Positions 738 through 28,833 of a stretch of DNA of 32,000 bases are shown piece by piece. Under the pieces are notes generated by a model. That model made no database searches and had not been told where the DNA came from. It saw only the letters and a list, made by a program, of their open reading frames with translations. The translations under genes were made by a program, and so were the position numbers. The stretch is from positions 390,001-422,000 of the forward strand of contig NZ_CP043315.1 in assembly GCF_008189285.1 (NCBI RefSeq), given 5' to 3'. How positions within the stretch are numbered: position 1 is the stretch's first letter; every line of letters starts with the position of its first letter. Source of the DNA: Candidatus Saccharimonadota bacterium (GTDB lineage: Bacteria > Pseudomonadota > Alphaproteobacteria > CAJXXZ01 > 1604HC).

Positions 738-2498
738 ATGCATTCTAATTCTGACATGAGTCAAAATAATCCTGACCTAAATAAATTGTTTCCATACTTC
801 AGAAATTCAATGAATTATCTGATGCAAGAAGGAGAAAAATTTGCTCAGAAATACCCTTCCATAGCAAAAGAATTAAATTTCTCAGAACACAAAATTTCAG
901 ATCCACATGTTAAAAGAGTCATAGAGGCATTTGCGTTTTTTGATGCTAGATTGCAATATCAAGTTGATGATCAAATGCGTGATATTAGCGCCAATCTTCT
1001 TAATGCGCTGTATCCACAATTCACAGCCCCAATCCCTTCATGCACTATATTGCAATTTCATAAAATGAAAAATATTTCTCAGAAACAAAGTATTTCTATA
1101 GAAAAAAACACTCAAGTAAAAGCAAAAAACTCTTACAAGCAAGAATGTACATTTTCTACTGTATATGATTTAGATCTAACTGATTTTCAGATCAATCAAA
1201 TGCAATATGTAAAAGCAGAGCAATCTGATTTAGCAGTAAAAAATTCATTTATGCTTGGATTAAATGCGCAAAATATAAAACCAAATCAAAGCGTCAGTTT
1301 ATTTATTAATTCAGACTCATTCTCTTCATTTTCTTTGTATGAAAACATATTAGCTTATAACCATGATGGCCCAACTCCAATTTTTGCTGCAAATTTAAAA
1401 CATGAATTATTGCAAAAAGAACCAATAGGATACATTTACCCCAAAGGATTTAGCGATGAAGATGCTCTTCTAGATATTCCGCAATATTGCTCTGATATAC
1501 ATAGAAATCTAATGGAGTACAGCGCATTTCCAGAGAAGTTCCTATTTGTCGATATGAAATTTAATGATTTTAATTTTGAAAACAATGAAATACAATTATT
1601 GATTCCATTAAGTGAAAAAGCTAATCCAAATACAATTCACCTAAATAACAATATGCTGTCTACTAACTGCACACCAGCAATTAACTTATTTCCAAAAAAA
1701 TCAGAACCTATTATGATAAATTATGAATCTGAATCATATAAATTAATTCCAGCAAAAAATGAAATTGCATTTGAAATACACACAATACAGAATGTTTATC
1801 AATATGATCAATCCAAAGAAAATAATAGAATAACTTATAATCAATATTTTGGATTTCGCCATCATGATACAAGCAAGTCTTGGTATCACTACAGGCAGCC
1901 ATCTATTTATGATGGAACAGATGCATTTATAGCCTTAGTAGATGAGGAAATGAAGCACCTTGATTCAAATTCAGCAACAATATACGCAGATTTATTATGC
2001 ACGAATAGAAAGCAAGCAGAGCATATTAAGATCAATACAGAATTTCAGGTAAATAAAATTGACGGAGTGTATTGCTCAAATCTAATACAGCCAACCCAAA
2101 GCATGTATTCTAATAGTGAAGGCAAAGAACAGTGGTCATTAATTTCCAACCTATCTTTAAATCATATAAGCTTAGCGATAAATCGTAATAATATAGAAAC
2201 ATTGCAAAAAATGCTGTCAATATATAGCTCAAGAAAAGATCTAAAACAATACAATAAAAAAATATTAAAAATTGAATACAAAGAATCTATAGGAAGAGTA
2301 AAAAATGCAATCACCGAAACTCTTCCAAAAATCATATTCAAAATCACATTTGAAGATTCAAATGCAGAAATATTTTTATTGTCTGTCTTATTGAGCAATA
2401 TTTTAATCAAAACTGCGCCATTCAATAGCCTGGTAGATGTTTTAATATTAAAAAATTCAAATGATACAATATGGAAAAAGGTTAGCTTAGAACAATGA
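738..2498 (+). CDS. tssF: type VI secretion baseplate protein TssF
   Basis: 586 aa. The N-terminal block LFPYFRNSMNYLMQEGEKFAQKYPSIAKELNF...DPHVKRVIEAFAFFDARLQYQVDDQMRDISANLLNALYPQFTAPIPSCTILQF matches the conserved TssF (ImpG/VasA) N-terminus. The size is typical, and the stop overlaps the tssG start (ATGA). Confidence 0.88.
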   Translation: MHSNSDMSQNNPDLNKLFPYFRNSMNYLMQEGEKFAQKYPSIAKELNFSEHKISDPHVKRVIEAFAFFDARLQYQVDDQMRDISANLLNALYPQFTAPIPSCTILQFHKMKNISQKQSISIEKNTQVKAKNSYKQECTFSTVYDLDLTDFQINQMQYVKAEQSDLAVKNSFMLGLNAQNIKPNQSVSLFINSDSFSSFSLYENILAYNHDGPTPIFAANLKHELLQKEPIGYIYPKGFSDEDALLDIPQYCSDIHRNLMEYSAFPEKFLFVDMKFNDFNFENNEIQLLIPLSEKANPNTIHLNNNMLSTNCTPAINLFPKKSEPIMINYESESYKLIPAKNEIAFEIHTIQNVYQYDQSKENNRITYNQYFGFRHHDTSKSWYHYRQPSIYDGTDAFIALVDEEMKHLDSNSATIYADLLCTNRKQAEHIKINTEFQVNKIDGVYCSNLIQPTQSMYSNSEGKEQWSLISNLSLNHISLAINRNNIETLQKMLSIYSSRKDLKQYNKKILKIEYKESIGRVKNAITETLPKIIFKITFEDSNAEIFLLSVLLSNILIKTAPFNSLVDVLILKNSNDTIWKKVSLEQ

Positions 2499-3385
2499 AC
2501 CTAGAGGAAAAATTAATTTCACAGCCATGGAAATTCTCCTTGCATCAATTCATGTTTTTGTCTAAACAAATTGATCCAAATTTAAAATTCAAAGGAAATA
2601 TAGATTTAAGTCCAAGTCCAAGCGATATTATTGAAATCAATCAAGACGAGCGACATGTTTTAGTTAATGGAATTAGTTTGCTAGGAATTCAAGGCGCACT
2701 TCCAATTCATTACATAGATATGATTATGAATAGAAAAAGAAAAAAAGATCATGCTTTGCAAGACTTCTTAGACATTTTCAATAATAAAATAATCAACAAT
2801 ACTTTTGATATAAAGAAAAAATCAGTTTTCTCACTAAGCGCTTCAAAATTTCAAAAAACATCATCAGGCAGAATCGCAAATGCAATAGGATTAGGTGAAT
2901 TACATAATTCTAATTCTATAACAAGGGAACTTTGCACAGCATTGCCTATTTTATTTTGGTCGCAAAAAAGCCCTAATAATTTAATCTATATACTTCAATC
3001 ATTTCTAAAAGACGCAAAAGTAGAATGCAAACAATTTATAGGAAAATGGATCAAAATAGAAGAGGAAGACCAAACTATATTAAGATCAAACTGTAAAAAA
3101 CCAAGTCTTGGATTAAAATTTCTAGGAAAAAGATTTTGGAATAGCAAGCATGGAATAAAAATTATAATAACCACAAAATCTCTTGAGTTATATTCTAAAT
3201 TATTACCAAACGAATCTTTCAGGAAAGACTTGGAGCTTATTATCAAATCGTATATTCCTTATAATATAAATTTCCAAATTGAATTAAATCTAATATACAA
3301 ATCTCAACCAACATTATTATTAGGAAAGCAAAGTATATTATCTTACTTCAGTTGGTTAAATAATGCATCATGCGAAAAAAGATAA
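2495..3385 (+). CDS. tssG: type VI secretion baseplate protein TssG
   Basis: 296 aa. PWKFSLHQFMFLSKQ...LLGIQGALPIHYIDMIMNRKRKKDHALQDFLDIFNNK matches the TssG signature (F-F-Q...GLxGxxGPLPxHYTE...FLDIFNHR). It overlaps tssF by 4 nt. Confidence 0.82.
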   Translation: MNLEEKLISQPWKFSLHQFMFLSKQIDPNLKFKGNIDLSPSPSDIIEINQDERHVLVNGISLLGIQGALPIHYIDMIMNRKRKKDHALQDFLDIFNNKIINNTFDIKKKSVFSLSASKFQKTSSGRIANAIGLGELHNSNSITRELCTALPILFWSQKSPNNLIYILQSFLKDAKVECKQFIGKWIKIEEEDQTILRSNCKKPSLGLKFLGKRFWNSKHGIKIIITTKSLELYSKLLPNESFRKDLELIIKSYIPYNINFQIELNLIYKSQPTLLLGKQSILSYFSWLNNASCEKR

Positions 3386-3402
3386 TTAAATTAGAGTTTA
3401 TT

Positions 3403-3555
3403 CTGATTTAATTAGAATTTATTCTAATCTGATTAGGACGCACTTTGTGTGGACTGATTTAATTAGAATTTATTCTAATCTGATTAGGACGCACTTTGTG
3501 TGGACTGATTTAATGAGAATACATTCTGATCTGGTTGATTTGCTCTTAAGCAAAT
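3403..3555. repeat. 51-bp tandem direct repeat: two exact copies plus one degenerate copy, each with an internal 8-bp inverted repeat
   Basis: The unit ctgatttaattagaatttattctaatctgattaggacgcactttgtgtgga starts at 3403 and again identically at 3454. A diverged third copy starts at 3505. attagaat/attctaat inside each unit are reverse complements separated by 2 nt. Confidence 0.85.
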
Positions 3556-3623
3556 TAATTTAATCGGAGCTTGCTTTGATAAATCTAATTGGAATACATT
3601 TCATTATATGTTAAAAATATGTA

Positions 3624-4538
3624 ATGAAGATTTTACTAGCTATCTTATTTGCTTTCTCTATGAATATGAATGCAAAAAATAGCAATGATATATACAATAA
3701 ATCAAATAGTAAAAATGAAATAGACAAAACAAGCGAAGAAGCCTTATGGCACAAAGCAAATCAATTATTCAAACAGTCAAATTATTCAAAAGCAGCAAAA
3801 ATATTAATGCAAATAGAAGAGCTTTATCCATCTTCTTCAAGAATCAAAGATGTTCTTTTTCTTGCTTCAAAATCATTTCTTTTGTGCAAGCAATATAAAA
3901 AAGCAATTGAAGCAGCAGAATTATTGAAAGAGCTAGACGCGTCATACAAAGAACATTCAATAGATGATGTGTTAATTCAATCTTATTATGCTCTTTTGAG
4001 AAGTCCAGAACGAGAAAATCCAACATTAAGAATGACATTAGCTTTGGCTGATAAGCATCCAAAAAAATACCATAGAATCAGACAAAAATGCATAGATATA
4101 TTAGCGTATGCAGATCTAAAAACAGGATTGTTATATGCAAAGAAAGATAATTATATAATATCCTTAAAATATTATGGAAATATAATTAGAGAATATAAAG
4201 AAAGCGCATTTACCAGCGAAGCATATTTTAGATGCGTAGAAATTTTCCATCATTTAGGCTTAACAAAAGACAAAAACCAATGCATAAAAATACTTGCTAT
4301 TAAATATTCAAAATCTGAATGGTATCAAAAAGCAATTGGACTAAAAGATGGTGGCAGCAAATGCGAAAAAATTATGTCTAATAATATTAAAAACAATTCT
4401 CAATCAACTATAAATGAAACTGAAAAGTCATATAATGTTTATATGAAAGATAGAAAAGATGAGAAAAAGATGAAAGAAAAAGAGGCGCAAAAATACAAAC
4501 CAAGAAAAACCAAAAAAAATCAAGAAATTAAAATATGA
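3624..4538 (+). CDS. TPR-type outer-membrane assembly protein, BamD/YfiO-like, with a Lys-rich C-terminal tail
   Basis: It has an N-terminal signal-like segment (MKILLAILFAFSMNMNA). This is followed by ALWHKANQLFKQSNYSKAAKILMQIEELYPSSSRIKDVLFLASKSFLLCKQYKKAIEAAE, which follows the BamD pattern of a TPR lead-in plus 'YP-S' motif. No lipobox Cys is present. The stop overlaps the ligA start (ATGA). Confidence 0.45.
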   Translation: MKILLAILFAFSMNMNAKNSNDIYNKSNSKNEIDKTSEEALWHKANQLFKQSNYSKAAKILMQIEELYPSSSRIKDVLFLASKSFLLCKQYKKAIEAAELLKELDASYKEHSIDDVLIQSYYALLRSPERENPTLRMTLALADKHPKKYHRIRQKCIDILAYADLKTGLLYAKKDNYIISLKYYGNIIREYKESAFTSEAYFRCVEIFHHLGLTKDKNQCIKILAIKYSKSEWYQKAIGLKDGGSKCEKIMSNNIKNNSQSTINETEKSYNVYMKDRKDEKKMKEKEAQKYKPRKTKKNQEIKI

Positions 4539-6208
4539 GCAAAGAATTATTAGAAGAATGGAAAGAAATAGCTAAAAAAATCAAAAAATATGATAAAAAA
4601 TATGCGCATGGAATTCCTCTTATATCAGATTTTTCTTACGATGCTCTTAAACAACGATTAGAAGATATAGAAAAAATTATAGGAAAACAGCGAAATAGCC
4701 CTTTAAATACAATTGGAGAAGTTGAGGAAAAAACAGTAGATCATGCAACCCCTATGCTTTCTCTTGATCATGGATATGGAGCAAATTCTATATCTGATTT
4801 TTATAAGAAGATTTATAACGCAACAAAATCTACTTATGAGAAAGCTGTTCCTAAAATGATTATAGAGCATAAAATTGACGGTGTAGCAGTATCTATTAGA
4901 TATGAAAATGGAGCAATAAAATATGTTCTCACAAGAGGGGATGGATTCGCAGGAATTGACATAACCAAACAATCAAAATATATAAAAGGAATCCCACAAA
5001 ATATTTCATTAAAAGATTTTGATATTAGAGGTGAAATATACATGACATTCGAAGATTTCGACAAAACTCAAGGATTTAAAAGCCCACGTAATGCAACTAC
5101 TGGAATAATCAGAAGCAAAGAAATGGATTTTATAGCATCACATAATCTGCAATTCATTGCACATGGATTTGTAAACAAAGGAAACTTTGAACAATATTCT
5201 GAAGGAATAGAATTTATCAAAAATGCTGGATTTCAAATATCTGATTATCATATAAGTAAATCTGAGCAAGAATCAATAGAAATTTTTGAAAAATTTGATC
5301 GCGATAGCGTTCCCTATCCTATTGATGGAATGGTATTTAAAATCAATGATTTAAATTTATGCGAACAATTGGGTCATCATAGAACCGCTCCAAGATATGC
5401 ATTTGCAGCTAAATTTCCTCCAAAAAATACAAAGACTTTCATTAAAAATATCGAATTTCAGGTTGGTAAGTTTGGAACAATTACTCCAGTTGCAGAAGTA
5501 AATTCAATAGAAATAGATGGAGTTATGATTCAAAAAGTATCCATGCATAACATGGCTGAATTGCAAAACAAGAAATACAATATAGGAGATGAGATTATAA
5601 TTGCTAGAGCTGGAGATGTAATACCTTATATACTTTCAAAAGAGAGCTCAGGCGAAAAATCTTTTGAACTTCCAAATCAATGCCCTGTTTGTAATTTTAA
5701 ATTAATTTGGGATAGCGTTACAATGAGATGCACAAATGGGTGGAATTGTAATGCGCAAGCTTTATTGAGGATTGAGCATTTTGTATCAAGAAAAGCAATG
5801 AATATTAGTGGTTTAGGAGCGAAAAATATCGAGAAATTATTCAATGCTGATATTGTAAAAAAGCCAAATGATATATTTAATATAATAAATTTAGTGCTTA
5901 ACAATGATGAGGTAATCAAAAAATTACTTGGTACAAAAGTTGCGCAAAACACATTTGAAAGCATTCAGAAAAATAAAAAATTATCTCTAAGTAGATTTAT
6001 ATATTGCTTGTGCATTCCTAATATTGGACATGGAATGGCTAAGACCATAGCAACTCATTGCATAACATTTGATAATTTTATAAATATATTTCAATCAGAT
6101 CAAATAGAAATCAAAGGTGTTGGTCCTATGATTATTGAATCTATCAAGAAATTTATTTCTGAAGAAAAATGGATCTATGATGCGTATCAAAAAATTGAAA
6201 TTATATAA
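4535..6208 (+). CDS. ligA: NAD-dependent DNA ligase LigA, short form apparently lacking the BRCT domain
   Basis: The KxDG adenylation motif (IEHKIDGVAVSIRYENG), the Cys4 zinc finger (CPVCNFKLIWDSVTMRCTNGWNC) and HhH-like segments (ISGLGAKNIEKL, IPNIGHGMAKTI, IKGVGPMIIESI) are present. The 557-aa length is well below the usual ~670 aa. Confidence 0.9.
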   Translation: MSKELLEEWKEIAKKIKKYDKKYAHGIPLISDFSYDALKQRLEDIEKIIGKQRNSPLNTIGEVEEKTVDHATPMLSLDHGYGANSISDFYKKIYNATKSTYEKAVPKMIIEHKIDGVAVSIRYENGAIKYVLTRGDGFAGIDITKQSKYIKGIPQNISLKDFDIRGEIYMTFEDFDKTQGFKSPRNATTGIIRSKEMDFIASHNLQFIAHGFVNKGNFEQYSEGIEFIKNAGFQISDYHISKSEQESIEIFEKFDRDSVPYPIDGMVFKINDLNLCEQLGHHRTAPRYAFAAKFPPKNTKTFIKNIEFQVGKFGTITPVAEVNSIEIDGVMIQKVSMHNMAELQNKKYNIGDEIIIARAGDVIPYILSKESSGEKSFELPNQCPVCNFKLIWDSVTMRCTNGWNCNAQALLRIEHFVSRKAMNISGLGAKNIEKLFNADIVKKPNDIFNIINLVLNNDEVIKKLLGTKVAQNTFESIQKNKKLSLSRFIYCLCIPNIGHGMAKTIATHCITFDNFINIFQSDQIEIKGVGPMIIESIKKFISEEKWIYDAYQKIEII

Positions 6209-6462
6209 ATCCATTAAAATAAAATAATAAAATATAAATTCACAATGAATATTCAAATGAATAAGAATAGAGGTTGTGTAAATCCATTAAAATAATGGAT
6301 AAAAATTATATAAATATTAAAATAAATTATTTAAATGAGAGCAATCAATATTATCGAAATCATCAAATTGTATTGCAAATCATGATCTTCATTGTAATAA
6401 ATTAAATGTATTTATGTTTAGAAATTATGTTGAAAAAATAATAATTTATCAATTGATAAATA

Positions 6463-7020
6463 TTACTTTCCTCCAGTTACAGTTGACTCTTTAACATTGT
6501 ATTTAAATTCAAATACTCCGTCAGAAGCTCCATCATCTTTAATTTTGCTAAACTTAACTGCCCTGCTATCAAATGCAAATCTCATAAAGTAAAATGCACC
6601 CAATTGACTTGCAACATAAACAACATTGCACATCCCATAAGTTAAAGTAAGTAATTTTTGTCTTTCATTTTTAACTAAAACAGTTTTTACAAGCTCAATC
6701 TTTGTTATAGGATCAGATGACAATCCTTTTTGTTGCAATTCAAAGGCAAAAATACTTTCAGGAATGTAAATTTCTACAAAACCAGAGTTGATTGTTCCTC
6801 CAACTGAAGCGCTGTTTTGTCTACTATCCTTCCTAATATTGTTACGAAAAGATTCTGAAAATTTCTTAACAGTAGCAAATTTCTCGAATCCTTTTACAGA
6901 TCCTTTAGCATTTAAACCATCAGCAGAGACAAATAAATCAGAACCCGAGGTTTGCTTATCATCTATCTCTATATTTAATTCTTCTGTATTTAGAATTGTG
7001 TAATCTTGTTCAGTGCTCAT
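6463..7020 (-). CDS. divergent Hcp (TssD)-like tube protein candidate
   Basis: 185 aa. It starts 2 nt after the stop of the tssBC ORF, the usual tssB-tssC-hcp position. Strand-like blocks (GGTINSGFVEIYIPESIFAFEL, ITKIELV, LLTLTYGMCNVVYV, FMRFAFDSRAVKFSKIKDDGASDGVFEFKYN) follow the order of Hcp beta strands, but similarity is weak. There is a ~30-aa N-terminal extension. Confidence 0.5.
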   Translation of the reverse strand: MSTEQDYTILNTEELNIEIDDKQTSGSDLFVSADGLNAKGSVKGFEKFATVKKFSESFRNNIRKDSRQNSASVGGTINSGFVEIYIPESIFAFELQQKGLSSDPITKIELVKTVLVKNERQKLLTLTYGMCNVVYVASQLGAFYFMRFAFDSRAVKFSKIKDDGASDGVFEFKYNVKESTVTGGK

Positions 7021-7022
7021 GA

Positions 7023-9014
7023 TTAACCTTCCTGTCCTGGTAGACTAGCTACCAATCTCAATGAAACTTCTAGTTCTTCCAACTGGAAATGAGGTTTCAA
7101 AAATATTACTGCCTTGTATGCGCCTGGATTTTCTTCATCAGCCACAACTTCAATATCAGCTTCTCTCAATGGATATTTTGCTTTTACATCTTGATCACCT
7201 TGATCTGATAAGAAAACGTAACGTGCAATCCAATTATTCAAATACAACTGAATGTCATCTTTGGATTCAAAAGATCCAATTTTATCTCTCATCAACATTT
7301 TAATGTAATGAGCAAATCTAGAAACATTCAACATATATGTTAATCTAGCAGATAGCGCAGCATTTGATGTTGCTGAAGGAAGATCATACTCCTTAGGCCT
7401 TTGCGTACTTTGCGCACTGAAGAACACAGCTTTATCCGTGCCTTTATTGTGGCATAGAGAAATAAATCCAAGATCACTTAATTCTTTTTCTCTTCTATCT
7501 GTAATCATAACTTCTGTAGGACATTTCAATGCAATATCACCATATGAAGTTTTGAATGTGTAAGCTGGTAGATCTTCAACCAATCCACCACCTTCAATAC
7601 CACGAATAGCAGCTGTCCAACCATATTTTGAATATGCAGTTGTGATTCTTAATGCCATTGCGAATGCGGGGTTTCCCCAACAGAATTTAGAGTTATCCAT
7701 TCCATCAACTGATTCATTGTAATCAAATTCTTTGACAGGAATAGTATTTTGACCATAAGGCAATCTAACCAAAACTCTTGGTAAAAACAAGTTTATGTAT
7801 CTAGAGTCTTCTGTGTCTCTAAAGCTATTCCATGCAGCCAATTCAGAGCTTTCGAAAATTTTCTTCAAATCTCTTGGGACATGTAGTTCGTTATAAGATT
7901 TAAGATCAAACATATCTGGCGCTGCTGCTGCCAACAAAGGACAATGTGCTGCTGCTGCAACTTGGCTCAATTTTCTTACAAATGCAACATCAATTGGCTT
8001 TCTTCCGATATAAAAATCAGCAACTAAAGAAGAATATGGAGATCCACCTAAGGTTCCAAACTCTTCTTCATAAATTCTCTTAAATAATGTGCTTTGGTCA
8101 AACTCTGAAGCATTATCCAAATCACTCTGAACTTCATCTCTTGTTGCAGCAAACAATCTAATTTTCAAATTTTCTCCTGTTTCAGAATTCATAACAACGT
8201 AATGAACCCCTCTCCAAGATGCTTCTAATTTTTGAAATTCTACATTATGCAAAATTTCATCCAATTGCAATGAAATCTTCTCATCAATTTTTGTGATTAC
8301 ATCCATTATGTAAGGGTATAAACTAGTTTCCCCAGTAATTTCAGATGCATTTTTGCACAAAGAAGCGATCATTTTTCTATATCTAATCATAGACTCAGAA
8401 TTCTTATCTGCATTCTTTTCATCAGCAGAACTATCTGTATATAATCCACTTTCTTTGATAATTTTATCCATCTCAGGGCATGATTTAGTTGAATCTTTTG
8501 ATTCTGAAACCAATTTAGCAAGCAATCCTTTGTCAGCAACTGCTTTAGATAAAATATCATGTAAAATATTATTTGAATCTAATTTAGCTGATAAATCAAT
8601 CAACATTTCATGATCTAACAATATTTCATTCAATTGAGGGATTCCCTTAACAATACTAATTGGATTAAAATCATCCATAGTTTCAAACATCAGCTCAAGA
8701 GCTAACATTTCACTAGAAGAGCCCTTCTTTTTATTAGATTTATCTTCTTTGACATCTAGAACATTATTAATAGAAATGTTCAGTTTAGGCTTAATTGATT
8801 GCATGACATGAGAAAAATTATCCCTGTCGATGTAAACAAATTTCCTTTCTTTAAAATTTACGCGATCCTCTTGATGACCATATAAATCAGAAATAACACC
8901 TAATACAAAAGGAAGCTCTTTAGATTGAACTGCTCCTCCTGTTTCGACGTCATAGGTTATACGGACTCTAGGAGGCCTAATTCTTAACAATAATTTTTGT
9001 ATGCTTTGCTCCAT
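7023..9014 (-). CDS. tssBC: type VI secretion contractile sheath, fused small and large subunits (TssB-TssC in one ORF)
   Basis: 663 aa without a stop. The N-terminus has the TssB/VipA motifs PPRVRITYDVETGGAVQSKELPFVLGVISDL and DDFNP. The remainder has TssC/VipB motifs: IDEKISLQLDEILHNVEFQKLEASWRG, EFDQSTLFKRIYEEEFGTLGGSPY, AAAAHCPLLAAAAP, FRDTEDSRYINLFLPRVLVRLPYG, GIEGGGLVEDLP, PTEVMITDRREKELSDLGF, SRFAHYIKMLMRDKIGSF, LKPHFQLEELEVSLRLV. A GAGAGG-type RBS lies upstream of the ATG at 9014. Confidence 0.9.
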   Translation of the reverse strand: MEQSIQKLLLRIRPPRVRITYDVETGGAVQSKELPFVLGVISDLYGHQEDRVNFKERKFVYIDRDNFSHVMQSIKPKLNISINNVLDVKEDKSNKKKGSSSEMLALELMFETMDDFNPISIVKGIPQLNEILLDHEMLIDLSAKLDSNNILHDILSKAVADKGLLAKLVSESKDSTKSCPEMDKIIKESGLYTDSSADEKNADKNSESMIRYRKMIASLCKNASEITGETSLYPYIMDVITKIDEKISLQLDEILHNVEFQKLEASWRGVHYVVMNSETGENLKIRLFAATRDEVQSDLDNASEFDQSTLFKRIYEEEFGTLGGSPYSSLVADFYIGRKPIDVAFVRKLSQVAAAAHCPLLAAAAPDMFDLKSYNELHVPRDLKKIFESSELAAWNSFRDTEDSRYINLFLPRVLVRLPYGQNTIPVKEFDYNESVDGMDNSKFCWGNPAFAMALRITTAYSKYGWTAAIRGIEGGGLVEDLPAYTFKTSYGDIALKCPTEVMITDRREKELSDLGFISLCHNKGTDKAVFFSAQSTQRPKEYDLPSATSNAALSARLTYMLNVSRFAHYIKMLMRDKIGSFESKDDIQLYLNNWIARYVFLSDQGDQDVKAKYPLREADIEVVADEENPGAYKAVIFLKPHFQLEELEVSLRLVASLPGQEG

Positions 9015-9224: not shown

Positions 9225-9638
9225 TCATTTATTTCTTTTTGGCTTAAAAAAGTCATAAAGCATGTTTTTACATTTATCTTCACAAACTCCCCCAATAATC
9301 TCAGATTCATGAGATATAGATCCATTGTTATAAGCGCCAAATATAACTCTTTTCATTCTAACTAAATTAATTGCGTTAATGCACATCTTGCATGGCTCTA
9401 AAGTGCAAAACATAATGCAATCACACAAAAATTTCACATCTAATTTTTTTACTGCTTCATTAATTGCTAAAATTTCAGCATGCAAAAGAGGATTTTTCAA
9501 CTCTTCAACTTTATTGCAACTTGATGCCACAACTTTGCCTTCATGAATTATCACACAACCCACAGGAACTTCATCGTCATTATTTGCAGCATCAATAGCA
9601 AGGCTCATAAAATATTTATGATCAATAAAATTATTCAT
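9225..9638 (-). CDS. tadA: tRNA-specific adenosine deaminase TadA
   Basis: 137 aa with the CDA-fold zinc motifs HAEILAINEA and PCKMC. The size and N-terminus (FMSLAIDAA...EVPVGCVII) are typical of TadA. Confidence 0.85.
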   Translation of the reverse strand: MNNFIDHKYFMSLAIDAANNDDEVPVGCVIIHEGKVVASSCNKVEELKNPLLHAEILAINEAVKKLDVKFLCDCIMFCTLEPCKMCINAINLVRMKRVIFGAYNNGSISHESEIIGGVCEDKCKNMLYDFFKPKRNK

Positions 9639-9678: not shown

Positions 9679-10938
9679 CTAAAATGAACCTAAACGACAT
9701 GGCGCATCACAATAACATGAAGCCAGAACAAACTTTGTAAGGAAAAATACTTTATCATCAAATCCTTTTGAAATATTTCCTGCTTGATAAAAATTCATAG
9801 AGTTGCTAGCATTTTCTAACTTATGCGCACAACTTCCTCGAACAGGCTTCTTTGACCCATCTCTGTTAAACCATCCTCCATTTAAGCCATGACTTATCAA
9901 AACAAATGCAATAGTGTCGCATACTTTATACTGAGAACAAGATATATCGCTCATATTTTTACTAACAGAATATGTGATATCGCTATTATAATAATCGCTA
10001 ACTTTTTTTCTTGATGATGCGCTTCTCATGCGATCTCCAGCATATTTACTACTACCCCATATTTCGCCTTCTGAGTCATCATCATCATAAATGCTATGAA
10101 ATACATCCATATAATGTGTTTTCTTAGCTTCTTTCAAAATATCAGATCCATTTCTATCAAAAACATGTGGAGACTTTTCAAAAAAACAAGACATATCAGA
10201 TAATATTGCCAAATAATACCCTGTTCCATAATGATGCCTTGGAGGTGTATTAGCAAAATATTTTATTTTTCTTCTGAATACATTTATAACCATATTTTTT
10301 TCTTCTTTTCCATACAGTTTAGCCCCACAAATTCCGGTCATTTTTGCATAATTTCTATTTTTAAGACTTTCAAGATTATCTTTATCGTAATCATGACCTA
10401 TGTAATTTCTTGACATGCCAATATGTTCGTATTCTTCCCTTTCTCCCATCATTATATTAACTGCATATGTAAAATAATTTCCATTTCCATCTTTCGCATC
10501 TTTCTCATCTAGCCCAAGAGTCAAAAAAGGAACTATTCCAAAAGCTTTATTACTCAACTTTCCATCTGTAGATTCATAGAAAAAAGAGGAAAGAGCCTCA
10601 CTATTACTCAATTTAGAAGCTTGCTCTCCAAACTTACAATCGATCTCACCTGAACATGAATATCTTGATTTTATAATATGAGGAAAAGGCAAATACCCAT
10701 TAGACATAGCGAAATTTGCTATAGCTTTATTGATTCTTTCAACATTGATTTGAGTAATTTTATCTCTTTGCATTTGCATCATAGAAAAAGTTAGCCTCAT
10801 AAAAGAATGAGAGGCAATTCCCATAATTATAAGAGCGAAACTTATTTCTAACAAAGAAAATGCATGCATCTTTCCAATAGCAAGCAATTTTTTAACTTTA
10901 AGAAAAAGAAGTTTGAAAGAATCAATCAGAAATGCCAT
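9679..10938 (-). CDS. large Cys-rich protein with a prepilin-type N-terminal cleavage/methylation-like segment
   Basis: The N-terminus ...AIGKMHA|FSLLEISFALIIMGIASHSF has the class-III signal layout: small residue at -1, F at +1, E at +5, then a hydrophobic helix. This is followed by RINKAIANFAMSNGYLPFP, as in pilins and pseudopilins. About a dozen Cys lie in the 350-aa C-terminal part. An alternative start is the ATG at 10869 (MHAFSLLE). Confidence 0.5.
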   Translation of the reverse strand: MAFLIDSFKLLFLKVKKLLAIGKMHAFSLLEISFALIIMGIASHSFMRLTFSMMQMQRDKITQINVERINKAIANFAMSNGYLPFPHIIKSRYSCSGEIDCKFGEQASKLSNSEALSSFFYESTDGKLSNKAFGIVPFLTLGLDEKDAKDGNGNYFTYAVNIMMGEREEYEHIGMSRNYIGHDYDKDNLESLKNRNYAKMTGICGAKLYGKEEKNMVINVFRRKIKYFANTPPRHHYGTGYYLAILSDMSCFFEKSPHVFDRNGSDILKEAKKTHYMDVFHSIYDDDDSEGEIWGSSKYAGDRMRSASSRKKVSDYYNSDITYSVSKNMSDISCSQYKVCDTIAFVLISHGLNGGWFNRDGSKKPVRGSCAHKLENASNSMNFYQAGNISKGFDDKVFFLTKFVLASCYCDAPCRLGSF

Positions 10939-11265
10939 ATAAATATAATAAAATACTAATTTAATTTCATCAATCGAATTACGACAAAAAAAATTTCTAT
11001 TTTTAATTTCTATTATAATATTGGATTCGCAAAATATTTCAATTGAATTTATCGCTAAGTATTTTTTTTGCTAATTTATCATTTTTTATTAAATTTATCG
11101 CTAAATATTAAAATATTATTTTTCTTATCACTAAAATATTAGTTTATTTTGTTAAATTTTATTAAAATATTAAAAAAACATTAAATTATCTATTTTCATA
11201 TACGATTTTTTTTTGTATCATTATTCCGTACTATTATTTAGTGTTCTTTTTGAAAGGGGAAAAAA

Positions 11266-11952
11266 ATGAATAAAAAACTTTTATTTGCAACTTTAATTTC
11301 TTTGTCTAACCAAGCATTCGCAGGAAGCTTTGCTGGTTCATTCGGTTTGGGAGCAACAGCTCAAAAAACCACATTGGAAATTGAAAAAAATGGCAACGCA
11401 TCTGAGTTCGAAAAAGACGGAAACAAGGGATACTTCGCAGGAAAAGCTCTAGTTTCATTGGGAATGAAAAAAGGATCTTCATTCTTTGGAGTAAAACTTT
11501 CAGCTTCATTGATGAGTGACAAGAAAAACTTAGAAGTAAAAATTGATGGTAAAGATGTTGAGACTATGAATTCAAAATCTAACTTCGCTGTTCATGTTGG
11601 TCCAGAATTCGGATACCAAGTAAACGATAAGTTTTCTGTGCACTCTGCTATTTTGCTTGCTTACAAACACATTGAAATCAATCAAAATGCATTAACTATT
11701 GAAAACGTTAAAGTTAGTGCAGCAAAAGCTGAAAAAGAATGCCAATACGGATTCGGTGCAACTGTTGCAGCTTTCTACAGCATCACCAAAATGTTCCAAG
11801 TTGGACTTGAAGGTGGAGCTGATTACATGATGAAGAAAGAAAATTCTTTCAAAACAAAAGTAGATGACAAAGATAAAGAAGTAAAGTTCGATGTTAAGAG
11901 CAACTTTGCTCCTCATGCATCAGTAATTGCTAAAATTTCTTTTGGCAAATAA
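11266..11952 (+). CDS. outer-membrane beta-barrel / surface antigen family protein, paralogue 1
   Basis: It has a signal peptide MNKKLLFATLISLSNQAFA|GS, alternating hydrophobic beta-strand patterning, aromatic strand ends (GPEFGYQV, YGFGATVAAFY) and a C-terminal ...VIAKISFGK. An AAAGGGG RBS lies 7 nt upstream. It is a paralogue of 12606-13253. Confidence 0.6.
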   Translation: MNKKLLFATLISLSNQAFAGSFAGSFGLGATAQKTTLEIEKNGNASEFEKDGNKGYFAGKALVSLGMKKGSSFFGVKLSASLMSDKKNLEVKIDGKDVETMNSKSNFAVHVGPEFGYQVNDKFSVHSAILLAYKHIEINQNALTIENVKVSAAKAEKECQYGFGATVAAFYSITKMFQVGLEGGADYMMKKENSFKTKVDDKDKEVKFDVKSNFAPHASVIAKISFGK

Positions 11953-12127
11953 ATCGCAAAATTATCTTTTAGGTAACTTGCGCAACAAATACTACTACGA
12001 CTAGTGTTTGTTCATTATGAGCAAATTAGTATTTCTGCATTCGCAGATTTACTGTTCAATTATTTCTTTTTTTAGTTTATTAATATTCATACTTAATACA
12101 GCAAAGAAATTCTTACGCAAAAATTTC

Positions 12128-12332
12128 TATAATTTCTTTCTATAATTTCTTTCTATAATTTCTTTCTATAATTTCTTTCTATAATTTCTTTCTATAATTT
12201 CTTTCTATAATTTCTTTCTATAATTTCTTTCTGTTATTTCTTTCTGTTATTTCTTTCTGTTATTTCTTTCTGTTATTTCTTTCTGTTATTTCTTTCTGTT
12301 ATTTCTTTCTGTTATTTCTTTCTGTTATTTCT
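12128..12332. repeat. 13-bp tandem array in two homogeneous blocks: 8 x tataatttctttc, then 7 full plus 1 partial x tgttatttctttc
   Basis: Counted directly. Variant A fills 12128-12231 (8 x 13 = 104 bp). Variant B fills 12232-12322, with a partial copy to 12332. The variants differ at unit positions 2 and 4 (tAtAa to tGtTa). There are no spacers. Confidence 0.95.
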
Positions 12333-12605
12333 ATTGTAAATTTTATGCATGAAATAACGTGCAACATAAATCCAAGAATTAAACAGATCTCTAGAAAATC
12401 TCAAATACATAATCATAGTGTTAGATTTTCTTGAACAGTATGTCTAATAAAATACCATGCAATATAGTCTTTATTTACTCTTAATCTCTATTGTTTGTTT
12501 TGTTAAAATATTAAAAAAGCATTAAATTATCTATTTTCATATACGATTTTTTTTTGTATCATTACTCTGTACTATTATTTAGTGTTCTTTTTGAAAGGGG
12601 AAAAA

Positions 12606-13253
12606 ATGAATAAAAAACTTTTATTTGCAACTTTAATTTCTTTGTCTAACCAAGCATTCGCAGGAAGCTTTGCTGGTTCATTCGGTTTTGGAGCAACGGC
12701 TCAAAAAACCACATTGGAAGCTGGCATAAAAAACACTATATTTGCATTCAAAGAAGATGGAAACAAAGGGTATTTCGCAGGAAAAGCTCTAGTTTCATTG
12801 GGAATGAAAAAAGGATCTTCATTCTTTGGAGTAAAACTTTCAGCTTCATTGATGAGCGACAAGAAAAACCTCATTAATCATAATGCTAATGAAAAATTTA
12901 TTAATTCAAAATCTAATTTTGCTGCTCATGTTGGCCCAGAATTCGGATATCAAATAAACAATAAGTTTTCTGTGTGTTATGCTATTTTGCTTGCTTATAA
13001 AAACATGAAAATCAAGAATAAAGAAATAAAAATTAAGAAAGAGTACCAATGTGGATTCGGTGCAACTGTTGCAGCTTTCTACAACATCACTAAAATATTC
13101 CAAATTGGACTTGAGCATGGAGTTGATTTCATGATGAAGAAAGAAAATGCTTTTGACAATCAATCAGACAAGAAGGTTAAAGAAGAAGCCAGTGTTAAGA
13201 GCAATTTTACTCCCCATGCATCAGTAATTGCTAAAATCTCTTTTGGCAAATAA
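12606..13253 (+). CDS. outer-membrane beta-barrel / surface antigen family protein, paralogue 2
   Basis: It has the same signal peptide, RBS and 5' leader as paralogue 1. The ORF track starts at a GTG at 12582, but the ATG at 12606 aligns with the start of paralogue 1. Conserved blocks are GNKGYFAGKALVSLGMKKGSSFFGVKLSASLMSDKKNL and PHASVIAKISFGK; the middle region differs. Confidence 0.6.
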   Translation: MNKKLLFATLISLSNQAFAGSFAGSFGFGATAQKTTLEAGIKNTIFAFKEDGNKGYFAGKALVSLGMKKGSSFFGVKLSASLMSDKKNLINHNANEKFINSKSNFAAHVGPEFGYQINNKFSVCYAILLAYKNMKIKNKEIKIKKEYQCGFGATVAAFYNITKIFQIGLEHGVDFMMKKENAFDNQSDKKVKEEASVKSNFTPHASVIAKISFGK

Positions 13254-13312
13254 ATCGCATGCATCAAAATTATATGCATTTACTATAAAATATATATAAT
13301 TTAAAATTCATT

Positions 13313-17282: not shown

Positions 17283-17691
17283 GCTAATAAAGCCCTTACA
17301 GCATTTATAAAATTAAATATAATAACGCTAAATTAAACATAGTAACTCTATAATATTTAATAAAATTAGATGAAATAAATTAACACCAAACTAAAATTAA
17401 CAAAAAAACCTTGCAGTATTTGCAAATTAGATATAATAGATAAATTAAAAATATAGTTCAAATAATATTTATAAAATTATATATAACAACTAATATGTAA
17501 ATTAAAATTACAAAACCCTTACAATACTTATAAATTAAATACAGCAACTCTAAATTAAATAGCAATTCTACAACATTTAGCAAAATTAGATGCAATAAAT
17601 TAACAGCATAAATTAAAATTACAAAACCCTTGCAATACTTATAAATTAAATACAGCAACTCTAAATTAAATAGCAATTCTACAACATTTAG
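17283..17691. repeat. about 112-bp tandem repeat array: two near-identical copies preceded by about two degenerate copies
   Basis: taaattaaaattacaaaaccctt(a/g)caatacttataaattaaatacagcaactctaaattaaatagcaattctacaacatttag occurs at 17497 and at 17609, a period of 112 bp. Recognisably related but decayed copies lie at about 17283-17496 (cccttacagcatttataaaattaaat...; ccttgcagtatttgcaaattagat...). Confidence 0.8.
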
Positions 17692-20478: not shown

Positions 20479-20594
20479 AATCTTTATTTTATTAAAATCC
20501 TAATTCTAAAAAATTAAATTGTATTTTAAATCATATATTTAAATTTAATTAATTCTGATTTGCTATCGATTGCAAGATCTAATATAATCAATAT

Positions 20595-21959
20595 ATGAAT
20601 ATACTTAAATCAACTTTAACTTCATTTGTATTGTCATCAGGCTGCTCACATGCAGTAAGTAATTTTCAATTCAAGGAATTTGACCACAATGCAATATGCG
20701 TACTTTCATGTACTTACAAAATTGTGCAGGATAAAAAACTTAAACATATTACTATAACTGAAGATATTGATATGGAAGATATTGATATGGAAGGCGATAA
20801 AGACAGTCTTATTAAATATATCAGCACAATATCTGAAACAGAACTAACAGAACAAAGTGGTTTATCAGAAATAAAAGATGCGCTTATGCTAAGTGCTAGC
20901 TCAATTGAAGATGCATATATTAGAGAGCTTGCAGAAGAGTTATGCGTTCTCCAAGCATCAAATGAAACAGAAAGACATCACAGACATTTAAGTCCATTAA
21001 TACCCAAATCTGCCAATCAATTGATCTATTTGTCATGTATGGATTATTGTTCAGATTACAATGAAGATTTAACTTATCATATCAAAAATGCCTTATTTTA
21101 TTTAGGATCAATTGCCAGTATATTATATAGCACACACGATGTTATGCATGGAATAGGGCAAGATTTCTTAAAAATAATAGCTCAAAATTCTTTAAAATTA
21201 ATAAGTAGATGTAGTTTTGAAAATTCAAGAATAGTGATAAGTGATATTGGCGCAAGCTTTAATGAAATGGAGCGAATTATTGACAATTTCTCATCAGTCA
21301 ATAATGCAGCTGTGTCTTTGCGCAAAGAAAGCATTGACTTGGCATTAGCCAAGATTCCAAACGCAAGCACTCTAATATTTTACAACTGCATTGATGTGCT
21401 AGCAAATACTCAATTAAATGATTTACAAGAATTAATAATGGATAATGTAGATTCATTCGAAATAGATGCTATAAAAATTCCTAATGTAAAAACATTGCGT
21501 ATAGAGAAAAATATGCGCCATCAATTTAAAGATGCGCCCAATTTATGCATACCAAGCTTTGTTTGGGATCTTGCAAATCTAGAGAATTTAGAAGACAGAT
21601 CTGGCATAATAAGAACAACAAACATTTCAAAAGACAATGGATTAAAATCACTTCTATTAAGCTCTGTGTCAGAAATTAAAGGATTAAACAATCTAAAATC
21701 ATTAGAAAAATTCAGCTTTAGAAGCGCTAGTGAAATCACATTAGGAGAAGATATAAAATCAGATTCTGTAAAGGATTTATGCATATTTATACAAGAAAGC
21801 ATAACAAATCTAGATGAAATTCTTACATACTTTCCTAATTTAGAAAAACTAACCATGCGTTATGAATCAGTTCGTAATGAAGATATGGCTAATTACACGT
21901 CTAGAATTTTAAATGAAAAAGGCATATCAGCTGATTGTAAACAGGGATATAGCTTATAA
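20595..21959 (+). CDS. secreted LRR-like family protein, paralogue A
   Basis: It has a signal-like N-terminus (MNILKSTLTSFVLSSGCSHA|VS). The first ~120 aa are near-identical to the ORF at 27414-28802. The C-terminal half has L/N-rich ~22-25-aa periodic segments (IPNVKTLRIEKN, LANLENLEDRSG, LNNLKSLEKFSF, FPNLEKLTMRY). Confidence 0.6.
   Translation: MNILKSTLTSFVLSSGCSHAVSNFQFKEFDHNAICVLSCTYKIVQDKKLKHITITEDIDMEDIDMEGDKDSLIKYISTISETELTEQSGLSEIKDALMLSASSIEDAYIRELAEELCVLQASNETERHHRHLSPLIPKSANQLIYLSCMDYCSDYNEDLTYHIKNALFYLGSIASILYSTHDVMHGIGQDFLKIIAQNSLKLISRCSFENSRIVISDIGASFNEMERIIDNFSSVNNAAVSLRKESIDLALAKIPNASTLIFYNCIDVLANTQLNDLQELIMDNVDSFEIDAIKIPNVKTLRIEKNMRHQFKDAPNLCIPSFVWDLANLENLEDRSGIIRTTNISKDNGLKSLLLSSVSEIKGLNNLKSLEKFSFRSASEITLGEDIKSDSVKDLCIFIQESITNLDEILTYFPNLEKLTMRYESVRNEDMANYTSRILNEKGISADCKQGYSL
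20700..20912. repeat. left copy of a 213-bp near-identical inverted repeat (the partner is 28485-28697)
   Basis: By eye, gtactttcatgtacttacaaaattgtgcaggataaaaaactt...gctagctcaattgaagat equals the reverse complement of 28485-28697 except for 2 mismatches (ataactgaagat versus ataattaaagat). The flanks are clearly more diverged. Confidence 0.85.
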
Positions 21960-23052
21960 TTGCTGCGCCATATTTATACAGCACAATAAAAAAGCCTAAC
22001 AAGTTGTAATTCTATTATCAATTCAAAAATCTTCAAATTATTATAAAGCTAAATTTCTCTCTTTAAGCTCAAAGATATTTGAGTTCAAGAATCTTCAAAT
22101 TAATATTTTCTATACAGCTTCAAAAGTATCTTAGTTATTTGTCAGGCATACTTTTTATAATAACAAAATTCAAGACAAAATCCCTTTAATTGATAAAATC
22201 TGCAACATGAGCAAATGAAACAAATTATATTTCATAAGATTTTGCACATTGGGTAAAAAGCATCTTCATAAATATTTCTAAAAAGCTATTGCCTACATGC
22301 ATTTCAAATCAGTTTCTATAGGGCTGATCAATTATACAAAACAATTGAAACGGTATTATGAATCTTTTTCTAATGACTTTTTATTAATATAAATTATTTA
22401 TATTATTTCAACTTTAAGCATTTGCATGCAATTAGTCTTAAATCTTTCATCTAATATTTCTGATATTATTTATAATATCTCTCATTGATTATGAGTTTAT
22501 ATAAAAGAAACTTTGCCTAAATTAATTTCAATGCTATTTCTTTAATGATAAAATATAATAAATATTAAGATTGATTGATATTATAAAATAACCAATCAAA
22601 ATAAACTGATAAATCTGATCTATATATTTCAATTCCATATTTCTTAGCTTTTAAACTATGGAGCAAAACTATCATTTGCACAAATTAATCGATGAGTTTT
22701 TATCATTCAAATAATTTAAGAAGATTGGTCTAACTAATTTTCTTAAATATATTAAAACTAAATAATTTTATTTGTAACTTTTGTTAATTATAAATTTTGA
22801 TTAAAAGATTAATTCAATTAAGATAATAAAATGATAAGCATACAATAATGCTCATTAAAAAATTAAGTTTATTGAATTTTCAAATTATATGAAAAACTTG
22901 CAAATTGAGTGTTTGTTTTTTCTAATCAACTGCCCTGTTTTTTAATAAAAGTATTATTTTACGAATATTATCTTATGATACTATTGATGAATATCAATCA
23001 ATTCAGATTGATAAATTTGATTTTAAGTTATTTGTAAATTTGTTAAAGCGAA

Positions 23053-26795: not shown

Positions 26796-27302
26796 ATGAA
26801 TATCATAATAACAACAATGCATATAATTTTACATCTACCAAATTGGGACACTTTCCTGCAAACACAAATCAATCAGTCAAATTGCACAATAAAAACGTGG
26901 TCTCCAAATTTGGAAAAGAAAAGCCATCTTAATCCTTACCAAGTTGTACAAGAAATATTTTCAAAAATTAATGATGATGGATATTTTTTCCTTAGCTTTA
27001 TAAAGTGTGGAAGATTTTATTTTTCCCCGCCAGAAAATGATCAAGAAGCGTGCGAAGTAATTAAAAAGATGGAAGGAAGACGAACTAGAATATATTACGC
27101 TCTCAGACAACCTAATGCAAAATACAAAATATCCGAAGAATGGATCATGTTGAAACGAATGAATGATTCAGAAAGACTGCTAACAGCTCCAAAACTTAAG
27201 AATTATCAGGAATTTTTAAGATTATCTGGACAATCTGTAATATTAAAATCAGGATCAACAAGAAACCCATTCAATTTATTGCATAATCATAATATTATAT
27301 GA
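26796..27302 (+). CDS. hypothetical protein (168 aa)
   Basis: This is an open frame only. No motif is recognised and no clear RBS was seen. It sits 43 nt after the preceding small ORF. Confidence 0.3.
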   Translation: MNIIITTMHIILHLPNWDTFLQTQINQSNCTIKTWSPNLEKKSHLNPYQVVQEIFSKINDDGYFFLSFIKCGRFYFSPPENDQEACEVIKKMEGRRTRIYYALRQPNAKYKISEEWIMLKRMNDSERLLTAPKLKNYQEFLRLSGQSVILKSGSTRNPFNLLHNHNII

Positions 27303-27413: not shown

Positions 27414-28802
27414 TTAAAATAACTCATAGTTAATTTCATCAACTTCTACTTCCACACCTTGTTTTGCTAGCTCAATAACTCCGTAATCTATTGGATATTG
27501 CTCATATTTCCCTAGCCCATGATAGCGTATGGTAAGATTTTTTAACTTAGGAAAATGCGTCAAAGCATAGTACAGATTTGTTACTGATCGATTTGTTGCT
27601 ATATCTATATATAAATCAGTCACAGAGCTTGATTTAAGATCTATTCCTAATGTAACTTGATTGATTGTTTTGAAATACAATTTTTTCCTTGCAATCCTTT
27701 TTTCTTCAATTTCTTCAATTTCTTCATCTGTTAGACTTTCAATTTCTTCATCTTCTTCATCTATCATATCTTCTATTCTTACAATCTCTTCATCTTTATT
27801 TTCAACTATCAGATTCTCTAAGTTTTTAAGATCCCAAATAAAATTAGGTATTTTATACAAATCGACATTAAAATCATCTGATTCATCATCATCATCATCA
27901 TACTCAACAGGAAAATCAAGCATTATATTAACCGTCTCAACATTAGGTATTTTATCGGAGCATATTTCATGTGATCTTGCATGTCTAATTGTTAGTTTCT
28001 TCAAACTATCTAGTTGAACATCTATTTTACATAAGCAGTCATAAAGAGTTAAAATTTTGATATTCGGAAACTTGCTTACAATAATATCAATATCTGCCTG
28101 ACTTACTATTTCTAGTTCGTCGATTGATGAGAAATTTGCCATAATTCTATTTATTTGATCGATATTTGCATTAGGATCATTTACAATTATTTTTGAATTT
28201 TCAAAACTACATCTACTTATTAATTTCAGAGAATTTTGAGCTATCTCTTTCAATAATGGCTCTTTTGTATCATTAAGAATATCTGCAATTTCCTTTAATT
28301 CAAATGAAGCATTTTTGATATGATAAGTTAAATCTTCATTGTAATCTGAACAATAACCTATACAGGATAAATAAATAAATTGATTGACAGCTTTGTGTGT
28401 TAATGCACTTAAATTTCTGTGATGCTCTTCTGGATCATTTGAGCGGAGGACACATAATTCTTCTGCAAGCTCTCTAAGATATGTATCTTCAATTGAGCTA
28501 GCACTTAGCATAAGCGCATCTTTTATTTCTGATAAACCACTTTGTTCTGTTAGTTCTGTTTCAGATATTGTGCTGATATATTTAATAAGACTGTCTTTAT
28601 CGCCTTCCATATCAATATCTTCCATATCAATATCTTTAATTATAGTAATATGTTTAAGTTTTTTATCCTGCACAATTTTGTAAGTACATGAAAGTACACT
28701 CATTGCATTATGATCAAATTCCTTGAATTGAAAATTGCTTGCTGCATTCGAATAATTCGATGATAATACAAACAATGCTAAAGCTGATTTAATAATATTC
28801 AT
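27414..28802 (-). CDS. secreted LRR-like family protein, paralogue B, with acidic insertions
   Basis: It has a signal-like N-terminus (MNIIKSALALFVLSSNYSNA|AS). The first ~120 aa are near-identical to paralogue A. It shares the internal block IAQNSLKLISRCSFENS and the motif IWDLKNLENL, and ends FPKLKNLTIRY... There are extra acidic runs (YDDDDDESDDF; EDMIDEEDEEIESLTDEEIEEIEEK). It starts 31 nt after the stop of the nlpD-like gene. Confidence 0.6.
   Translation of the reverse strand: MNIIKSALALFVLSSNYSNAASNFQFKEFDHNAMSVLSCTYKIVQDKKLKHITIIKDIDMEDIDMEGDKDSLIKYISTISETELTEQSGLSEIKDALMLSASSIEDTYLRELAEELCVLRSNDPEEHHRNLSALTHKAVNQFIYLSCIGYCSDYNEDLTYHIKNASFELKEIADILNDTKEPLLKEIAQNSLKLISRCSFENSKIIVNDPNANIDQINRIMANFSSIDELEIVSQADIDIIVSKFPNIKILTLYDCLCKIDVQLDSLKKLTIRHARSHEICSDKIPNVETVNIMLDFPVEYDDDDDESDDFNVDLYKIPNFIWDLKNLENLIVENKDEEIVRIEDMIDEEDEEIESLTDEEIEEIEEKRIARKKLYFKTINQVTLGIDLKSSSVTDLYIDIATNRSVTNLYYALTHFPKLKNLTIRYHGLGKYEQYPIDYGVIELAKQGVEVEVDEINYELF
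28485..28697. repeat. right copy of the 213-bp near-identical inverted repeat (the partner is 20700-20912)
   Basis: See the partner entry; coordinates were derived by direct comparison of the two strands. Confidence 0.85.
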
Positions 28803-28833
28803 GAGTTGAATTTACTAAGTTTATTAAAAAATC

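Follow-up and report, generated by a model that had tools for sequence, protein, structure and literature searches.

We analysed a 32,000-nucleotide stretch of an alphaproteobacterial genome (contig NZ_CP043315.1 of assembly GCF_008189285.1, positions 390,001 to 422,000; hereafter the window, with positions counted from its first nucleotide) in which genes of a type VI secretion system (T6SS) lie interspersed among housekeeping genes. The genome is reduced and AT-rich, as had been supposed from the window alone, with 628,024 bp and a G+C content of about 30%, a value that also holds over the entire 32-kb window. On the forward strand, tssF (738-2498, 586 amino acids) and tssG (2495-3385, 296 amino acids) encode the two baseplate wedge subunits. 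On the reverse strand lie tssBC (7023-9014), a fused sheath gene forming one open reading frame (ORF) of 663 amino acids, and a 185-amino-acid gene (6463-7020) that we identify below, by profile, structure and position, as a divergent hcp (tssD) for the inner-tube subunit. All four T6SS ORFs are intact and full length against their family models. TssF matched PF05947 (E = 3.7e-105, model positions 3-596 of 608) and scored 358 bits against TIGR03359 (cut-off 260). TssG matched PF06996 (E = 1.5e-42, model positions 2-303 of 304) and, with 141.0 bits against TIGR03347, fell marginally below the 143.3-bit cut-off. With both matches near full length, the wedge subunits of a T6SS of type i (T6SS-i) are present. 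The stop of tssF and the start of tssG overlap by 4 nt (ATGA), and hcp starts 2 nt past the tssBC stop with a GGAAGG motif ahead, an organisation that suggests translational coupling within each pair.

The two pairs are convergent and about 3 kb apart, separated by two housekeeping genes on the forward strand: a bamD/yfiO-like gene for a lipoprotein with tetratricopeptide repeats (3624-4538; PF13525, E = 2.4e-10; 59 bits against TIGR03302, under the cut-off), which is co-directional with tssFG, and ligA, for NAD-dependent DNA ligase (4535-6208; NF005932, E = 3.3e-137), which overlaps the bamD-like gene by 4 nt. Divergent from tssF is fabD (malonyl-CoA:ACP transacylase), of which the 5' part, on the reverse strand at 1-663, runs off the window start; its translation carries the FPGQGAQ and GHSVGE motifs. 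A 210-bp spacer separates tssBC from the upstream, co-oriented tRNA adenosine deaminase gene tadA (9225-9638; PF00383, E = 2e-25; NF008113, E = 9e-25), beyond which lies a 419-amino-acid prepilin-like (pseudopilin) gene (9679-10938, reverse strand), whose N-terminus HAFSLLEISFALIIMGI is of prepilin type (AFSLLE, then a hydrophobic helix) and weakly matches TIGR02532. This is the arrangement that the original prediction had described, and family searches bore out each of its gene calls, from the convergent T6SS pieces with the BamD-like gene and ligA between them to the flanking fabD, tadA and pilin-like genes. Its statement that the window holds no other T6SS core gene also stood, in that family searches of the 32 kb, including ORFs of at least 80 amino acids outside the annotated genes, recognised none. 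The contiguity of core genes in one locus, which is typical of a T6SS but not strictly defining, is therefore lacking, and what the window contains instead are the split modules [tssG-tssF] and [tssB-tssC-hcp] of the Holosporales type, each with coupled junctions.

Both sheath subunits of a T6SS-i are encoded within the single 663-amino-acid ORF, which matched PF05591 (residues 11-172), PF05943 (239-538) and PF18945 (548-658) and exceeded the cut-offs of TIGR03358 (136 bits; cut-off 97) and TIGR03355 (638 bits, E = 9e-192; cut-off 271). The original prediction was right about the sheath identity of this gene and missed that tssB and tssC are fused in it. Fused TssBC proteins of 622-723 amino acids, all with the same three domains, made up the best 120 homologues listed, with two highly conserved halves joined by a linker of variable length. 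For a wider comparison we used at least 80 further loci obtained by a TssBC-alignment scan of genome contigs, which are mostly canonical proteobacterial clusters and do not include the Cytomitobacter genomes. A neighbour-joining tree of the TssC part grouped the window with all the other Holosporales-like loci, 21 in total, as a single clade, and both this tree and the best named matches put the sheath gene of the window within the Holosporales. The fusion is found in 17 of these 21 loci, the remaining four having in-frame stops in the linker, and we predict from these reading frames that TssB and TssC form a natural single-chain sheath across the clade. Uninterrupted fusions also occur in the unrelated Thalassomonas, Algicola, Kangiella and Trinickia soli and in one metagenome-assembled genome (MAG); Thalassomonas, Kangiella and Trinickia soli, the ones with enough downstream sequence to judge, keep the canonical cluster, and these sporadic fusions are apparently independent. 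A seemingly widespread fusion in Pseudomonas, Burkholderia and others, suggested by full-length single tblastn alignments, was discarded when in-frame stops showed separate tssB and tssC genes in the same frame. A full-text search of a limited literature set returned no relevant paper on a natural TssB-TssC fusion, which is not proof that it is unreported. The single-chain sheath could lend itself to structural studies of how sheaths assemble and how ClpV or ClpB recycle them, since the fusion places the ClpV-binding N-terminus of TssC inside the protein.

The gene that follows the sheath gene was much harder to place. As a single sequence its 185-amino-acid product matched no Pfam or NCBIfam family, word-indexed searches returned only three and later nine homologues, and a shallow profile of eight sequences found nothing credible in the PDB. 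The link to Hcp was made because an exhaustive HMMER search with a nine-sequence profile, for which these approaches were no substitute, extended the family to 64 cluster representatives. The Pfam family T6SS_HCP (PF05638) was then matched by 10 of 62 members, and the family profile matched Hcp sequences in the PDB at E = 5.6e-8. An AlphaFold2 model built on the 62-sequence alignment (predicted local distance difference test score, pLDDT, 86.2; predicted TM-score, pTM, 0.80) consists of a beta-barrel core with one helix and a disordered N-terminal extension of about 28 amino acids, and almost all of its top Foldseek matches are Hcp structures, including Hcp1 (best E = 7.7e-13, TM-score 0.73-0.86); since this deep alignment includes recognisable Hcps, neither the model nor the profile is independent of the Hcp link. 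An earlier model from nine sequences (pLDDT 63) gave the same, weaker, Foldseek answer. Gene position points the same way: for most of the 89 loci, the family profile detected the ORF immediately downstream of tssC, the corresponding ORF of a canonical Pseudomonas locus, the one locus checked against Pfam, is a T6SS_HCP protein (E = 1e-30), and in two Holosporales loci (L004 and L088) the equivalent gene stands between tssBC and vgrG. By profile, predicted fold and position, the 185-amino-acid gene encodes a divergent Hcp, which would supply the inner-tube component of a T6SS-i, and the earlier description of 6463-7020 as hcp-like proved correct.

This assignment is at odds with published accounts of the lineage. 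George et al. (bioRxiv 10.1101/719211), in the accessible part of the preprint, scored Hcp as absent in Cytomitobacter and Nesciobacter symbionts and described a 'modified' T6SS, and a 2025 review (PMC11909080), in the portion available, likewise treats the inner tube of diplonemid symbionts as missing. An Hcp-like protein had been flagged earlier in Ca. Bodocaedibacter by Midha et al. 2021 (PMC8163844). The Hcp assignment extends that report to the Cytomitobacter lineage and contradicts the published lack of an inner tube, which, judged by the modelled fold and the profile matches, makes a tube-less T6SS in this lineage unlikely. With the gene after the sheath gene identified as Hcp by profile, structure and position, the system would probably be a conventional tube-firing machine.

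The gene order of the window recurs in its closest relatives. The nearest named relatives of its TssBC, among the best homologues listed, are Ca. Cytomitobacter primus (78% identity) and Ca. Nesciobacter abundans (63%), together with Holosporaceae MAGs; both named species belong to the Holosporales and live inside diplonemid protists, and their genomes measure about 0.62 Mb. The complete genomes of C. primus, for which two assemblies were compared, and of N. abundans share with the window an identical order of nine genes, namely prepilin-like gene, tadA, tssBC, a gene for about 180-210 amino acids, ligA on the opposite strand, bamD, tssG, tssF and fabD, the last of which appears in their loci as an Acyl_transf_1 gene at the equivalent place. 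In their loci L001 and L003 the bamD-like gene keeps its place. The arrangement therefore predates the split of these genera, and its persistence at TssBC identities of only 63-78% favours the suggestion in the original prediction that this is an old, domesticated system broken up by rearrangement; the comparison of synteny with the closest relatives that it had called for thus returned the same order. Chimeric joins at 3386-3623 or 6209-6462, which it had named as a way in which the interleaving could be an assembly artefact, have practically nothing to recommend them. AT-rich sequence of low complexity makes up both spacers, and no support for misassembly was found; against it, the junctions between tssG and bamD and between ligA and hcp are shared by N. 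abundans and both C. primus assemblies, a separate Logan contig (TssBC 84% identical; tssBC, the small hcp gene and convergent ligA) has the ligA/hcp junction as well, and G+C content is uniform across the T6SS region.

Dispersal of the T6SS extends beyond these genera to the whole clade. Among the loci listed that have at least 6 kb of downstream sequence, a co-directional tssF lies within 6 kb of tssC in 46 of the 55 loci with separate tssB and tssC, as against 3 of the 16 fused loci, all three of them gamma- or betaproteobacterial; for Holosporales-type fused loci the count is 0 of 13, and no member of the 21-locus TssC clade with that much downstream sequence carries a tssF further along in the same direction. 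In the other Holosporales loci examined, neither tssF nor tssG was found within 10 kb of tssBC. Two loci (L005 and L006) have the fused tssBC and the hcp-like gene on their own amid housekeeping genes, and in two Holosporales with larger genomes, the NHP-B shrimp pathogen and one MAG with a 457-kb contig, both genes are followed by vgrG, a gene for about 230 amino acids and a PAAR-like DUF4280 gene (L004, 2386-8410; L088, 10001-16059). This longer module would represent an intermediate stage in the break-up of the cluster. The window resembles the published Holosporales split T6SS (PMC8163844; 10.1101/719211) in its separate [tssG-tssF] and [tssB-tssC-hcp] units among housekeeping genes, and belongs with the other Holosporales loci by sheath similarity, fused sheath type and the divergent Hcp family downstream. 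What sets Cytomitobacter and Nesciobacter apart from other Holosporales is that the two modules lie about 3 kb apart and convergent, with bamD-ligA in between.

The canonical T6SS-i, for which we took Pseudomonas sp. R1-7 (L028) as reference, forms one contiguous locus in which tssA-tssM-tssL-tssK diverges from tssB-tssC-hcp-tssE-tssF-tssG-clpV. TssB, TssC, Hcp, TssF and TssG of the window are homologous to those of canonical systems, with a TssBC identity of 44-49%, and the orders B-C-hcp and F-G are kept. In contrast, canonical systems have tssB and tssC as separate genes, and in the window there is no tssE between hcp and tssF, the pair F-G is inverted relative to B-C-hcp and housekeeping genes are interposed. 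In systems of the Vibrio cholerae type, the genes known to lie apart, in auxiliary clusters, are hcp, vgrG and those for effectors and immunity proteins, and the structural core remains in one cluster. Such systems also encode parts away from their main locus, whereas in the window the split runs through the structural core. Midha et al. 2021 (PMC8163844) have described a split T6SS as the convention in Holosporales, covering Bodocaedibacteraceae, Paracaedibacteraceae and Caedimonadaceae, so that the layout is not new and the novelty implied by the original prediction falls away: the observation of a split T6SS was accurate, yet the layout is largely ordinary for Holosporales. Being the published norm there, dispersal by itself adds little, and the window probably belongs to one of the very genomes for which this T6SS was originally reported; the modest value added by our analysis, mainly for specialists, lies in assigning Hcp and in tracing the sheath fusion across the clade.

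Our reading is that the window carries two conserved modules of the Holosporales split T6SS in a lineage of diplonemid endosymbionts (Cytomitobacter type), maintained by selection and assembling with parts encoded elsewhere in the genome, and we place its probability at about 0.8. Maintenance is indicated by the divergence between the window and C. primus, which we measured as non-synonymous divergence (dN, Nei-Gojobori) and compared between genes because synonymous divergence (dS) is saturated (>1.3 or undefined). The T6SS genes have dN values of 0.148 (tssBC, the lowest in the block), 0.215 (tssF), 0.239 (tssG) and 0.258 (the hcp-like gene), as compared with 0.207 for ligA, 0.287 for tadA and 0.303 for bamD. 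The intact long ORFs had been taken to argue for continued function, and a dN in the range of essential neighbours or below agrees with this. In genomes that tend to discard DNA of no use, a rate of protein change in the T6SS genes no higher than in essential neighbours speaks against decay, and the modules are thus, on the evidence of their coding sequences, probably held by selection. That they are nevertheless leftovers of a T6SS being lost from a shrinking genome, with no working machine, as the original prediction had offered for choice, we regard as unlikely. The genome is indeed highly reduced (628 kb), the 32 kb show only four to five of the roughly 13 core genes, TssJ is reported missing and so, in some species, is ClpV. 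Set against this are four full-length T6SS ORFs with protein divergence comparable to or below that of their essential neighbours (0.15-0.26 against 0.21-0.30), modules that are intact in at least three symbiont genera with genomes of about 0.6 Mb, where useless genes vanish quickly, the reported transcription of T6SS genes in Ca. Bodocaedibacter (PMC8163844), and the retention of tssE, K, L, M and vgrG, and in most cases tssA, reported for relatives by George et al. (10.1101/719211). There, Table S3 lists tssA, B, C, E, F, G, I, K, L, M, vgrG, cts2N and a PAAR-like gene for C. primus, the same set with tssH (clpV) added for C. indipagum, and the C. primus set without tssA for N. abundans; ClpV is unlisted for C. 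primus and N. abundans. Going by these lists, an absence of the remaining core genes, which the original prediction had named as the sign of a remnant, is not borne out.

Several points weigh against a maintained and complete system. The other core genes are only presumably present in the genome to which the window belongs, on the strength of the published lists for its relatives, one of which probably covers this same genome. TssJ, which would bear on how the system anchors in the outer membrane, was not found in the clade; it is reported as unrecognised in most of the clade, with only a tssJ-like gene reported, in Ca. Bodocaedibacter. Saturation of dS bounds dN/dS at about 0.2 or less, and the selection estimate proposed in the original prediction takes the form of a comparison of dN with essential neighbours. 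Promoter and terminator scans, which in this AT-rich DNA found fewer sites than in shuffled sequence, are mute on operon structure. The lack of TssJ and the relaxed gene clustering would be explained if sheath, tube and baseplate had been co-opted for a non-classical function, such as a contractile structure released by lysis or acting in the host cytoplasm; the unusual single-chain sheath, the N-terminal extension of Hcp and the unlisted ClpV of C. primus and N. abundans would fit as well. We nonetheless consider co-option improbable, slightly more so than loss, given that the inner-membrane complex (TssL, TssM) and TssK are reported as kept in relatives, that vgrG, an intervening gene and a PAAR-like gene follow hcp in L004 and L088 as in an ordinary T6SS, and that nothing observed points positively to a different way of working.

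If the modules do belong to a maintained split T6SS, their history may be sketched as follows. A contiguous ancestral cluster, of the form tssA-M-L-K / tssB-C-hcp-E-F-G-clpV still seen in Pseudomonas, would have been broken into modules early in the Holosporales lineage, and the modules, now amid housekeeping genes (bamD-ligA, tadA), would probably be transcribed alongside them. Such co-expression is suggested because tssFG is followed by the co-directional, overlapping bamD-ligA pair and because tadA precedes tssBC. Physically interacting partners have been kept paired, tssF with tssG in the wedge and tssBC with hcp as sheath and inner tube. Coupling within each pair may preserve stoichiometry within the sub-complexes, so that a break-up at module boundaries could be tolerated. 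The products would then assemble with those of tssA, E, K, L, M, vgrG and a PAAR-like gene, presumed to be encoded elsewhere, into a contractile injection machine that would act on the host.

The features shared by these loci further raise the possibility that the Holosporales T6SS is a distinct and coherent subtype and not a degraded form of the canonical system, defined by a single-chain sheath, a divergent Hcp with an N-terminal extension, the absence of TssJ and coupled modules placed in housekeeping units, and that the published tube-less picture for diplonemid symbionts and other Holosporales is an annotation artefact concealing a normal Hcp tube that is fired into the host cytoplasm. 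We lean towards this broader proposal, by a narrow balance. Published ideas of a 'modified' T6SS build on the missing inner tube, which the Hcp assignment undercuts.

The prepilin-like gene next to tadA invited the question of an accessory role. Prepilin-like genes with AFSLLE or GFSMLE N-termini adjoin tssBC-hcp in the window, in L001 (7260-9410), in L003 (6747-8819) and in L006 (12727-14090), a locus of another genome with a contig of about 0.6 Mb, where the gene adjoins hcp, and such a neighbour is absent from the other Holosporales-like loci and from all 68 of the 68 loci outside that set. On these grounds, with the gene confined to C. primus, N. abundans and L006 besides the window, a general T6SS accessory was rejected; its position near tssBC-hcp may be a matter of shared ancestry and not of function. 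The neighbouring LigA, of 557 amino acids, matches NF005932 over positions 2-562 of 664, and its C-terminal BRCT domain is missing; LigA of N. abundans has 653 amino acids.

The rest of the window is occupied by housekeeping genes (lgt, cvpA, radA, an OmpA-domain gene, nusA, serS, a LysM-M23 peptidase gene, the genes for ribosomal proteins L21, L27 and L33, and tRNA-Phe), two outer-membrane beta-barrel paralogues and several genes for secreted proteins, some with leucine-rich-repeat (LRR)-like parts, none of which matches T6SS families. Five ORFs of 168, 316, 454, 462 and 974 amino acids were considered as hidden T6SS parts and set aside, with no family support for any of them. The 454- and 462-amino-acid proteins, and less clearly the 316-amino-acid protein, look secreted and have LRR-like C-terminal parts; George et al. 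(10.1101/719211) credit C. indipagum with many more LRR and signal-peptide proteins than its relatives. The window is rich in such proteins and probably comes from C. indipagum or a species very near it, although no match under that name appeared among the homologues listed.

Several repeats mark this part of the window. The beta-barrel gene is tandemly duplicated at 11157-13259 (11266-11952 and 12582-13253, 80-94% DNA identity), and between the copies, at 12124-12344, lie about 17 copies of a 13-nt unit (TTTCTATAATTTC / TTTCTGTTATTTC). This array might vary in length, because its unit is not a multiple of three and it lies upstream of the second copy. An 83-nt direct repeat (17498-17691; two copies 111 nt apart, 99% identical) is intergenic, between the gene for the 316-amino-acid secreted protein and the OmpA-domain gene. 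Further downstream, two paralogous genes for secreted LRR-like proteins (20595-21959, forward strand; 27414-28802, reverse strand) form an inverted repeat with their 5' parts (20580-21299 / 28122-28817), in which 373 nt are 90%, 158 nt 84% and 135 nt 77% identical. The 7-kb segment inside it holds tRNA-Phe, rpmG (L33), the gene for the 974-amino-acid secreted low-complexity protein and the 168-amino-acid ORF, and could be inverted by recombination. About 950 bp (21960-22908) without an ORF of at least 40 amino acids or an Rfam match, an unusually long gap for such a compact genome, may be a decayed gene. The 974-amino-acid ORF (23375-26299, reverse strand) has a signal peptide, a long Ser/Glu/Lys-rich middle that is probably disordered and no family match, and its product is a candidate secreted effector on the basis of these sequence features. 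The 168-amino-acid ORF (26796-27302, forward strand), with a weak Maf-like match as its sole hit (NCBIfam, E = 0.009, residues 68-113), might represent a maf gene in a truncated or decaying state; L088 has an intact maf upstream of tssBC.

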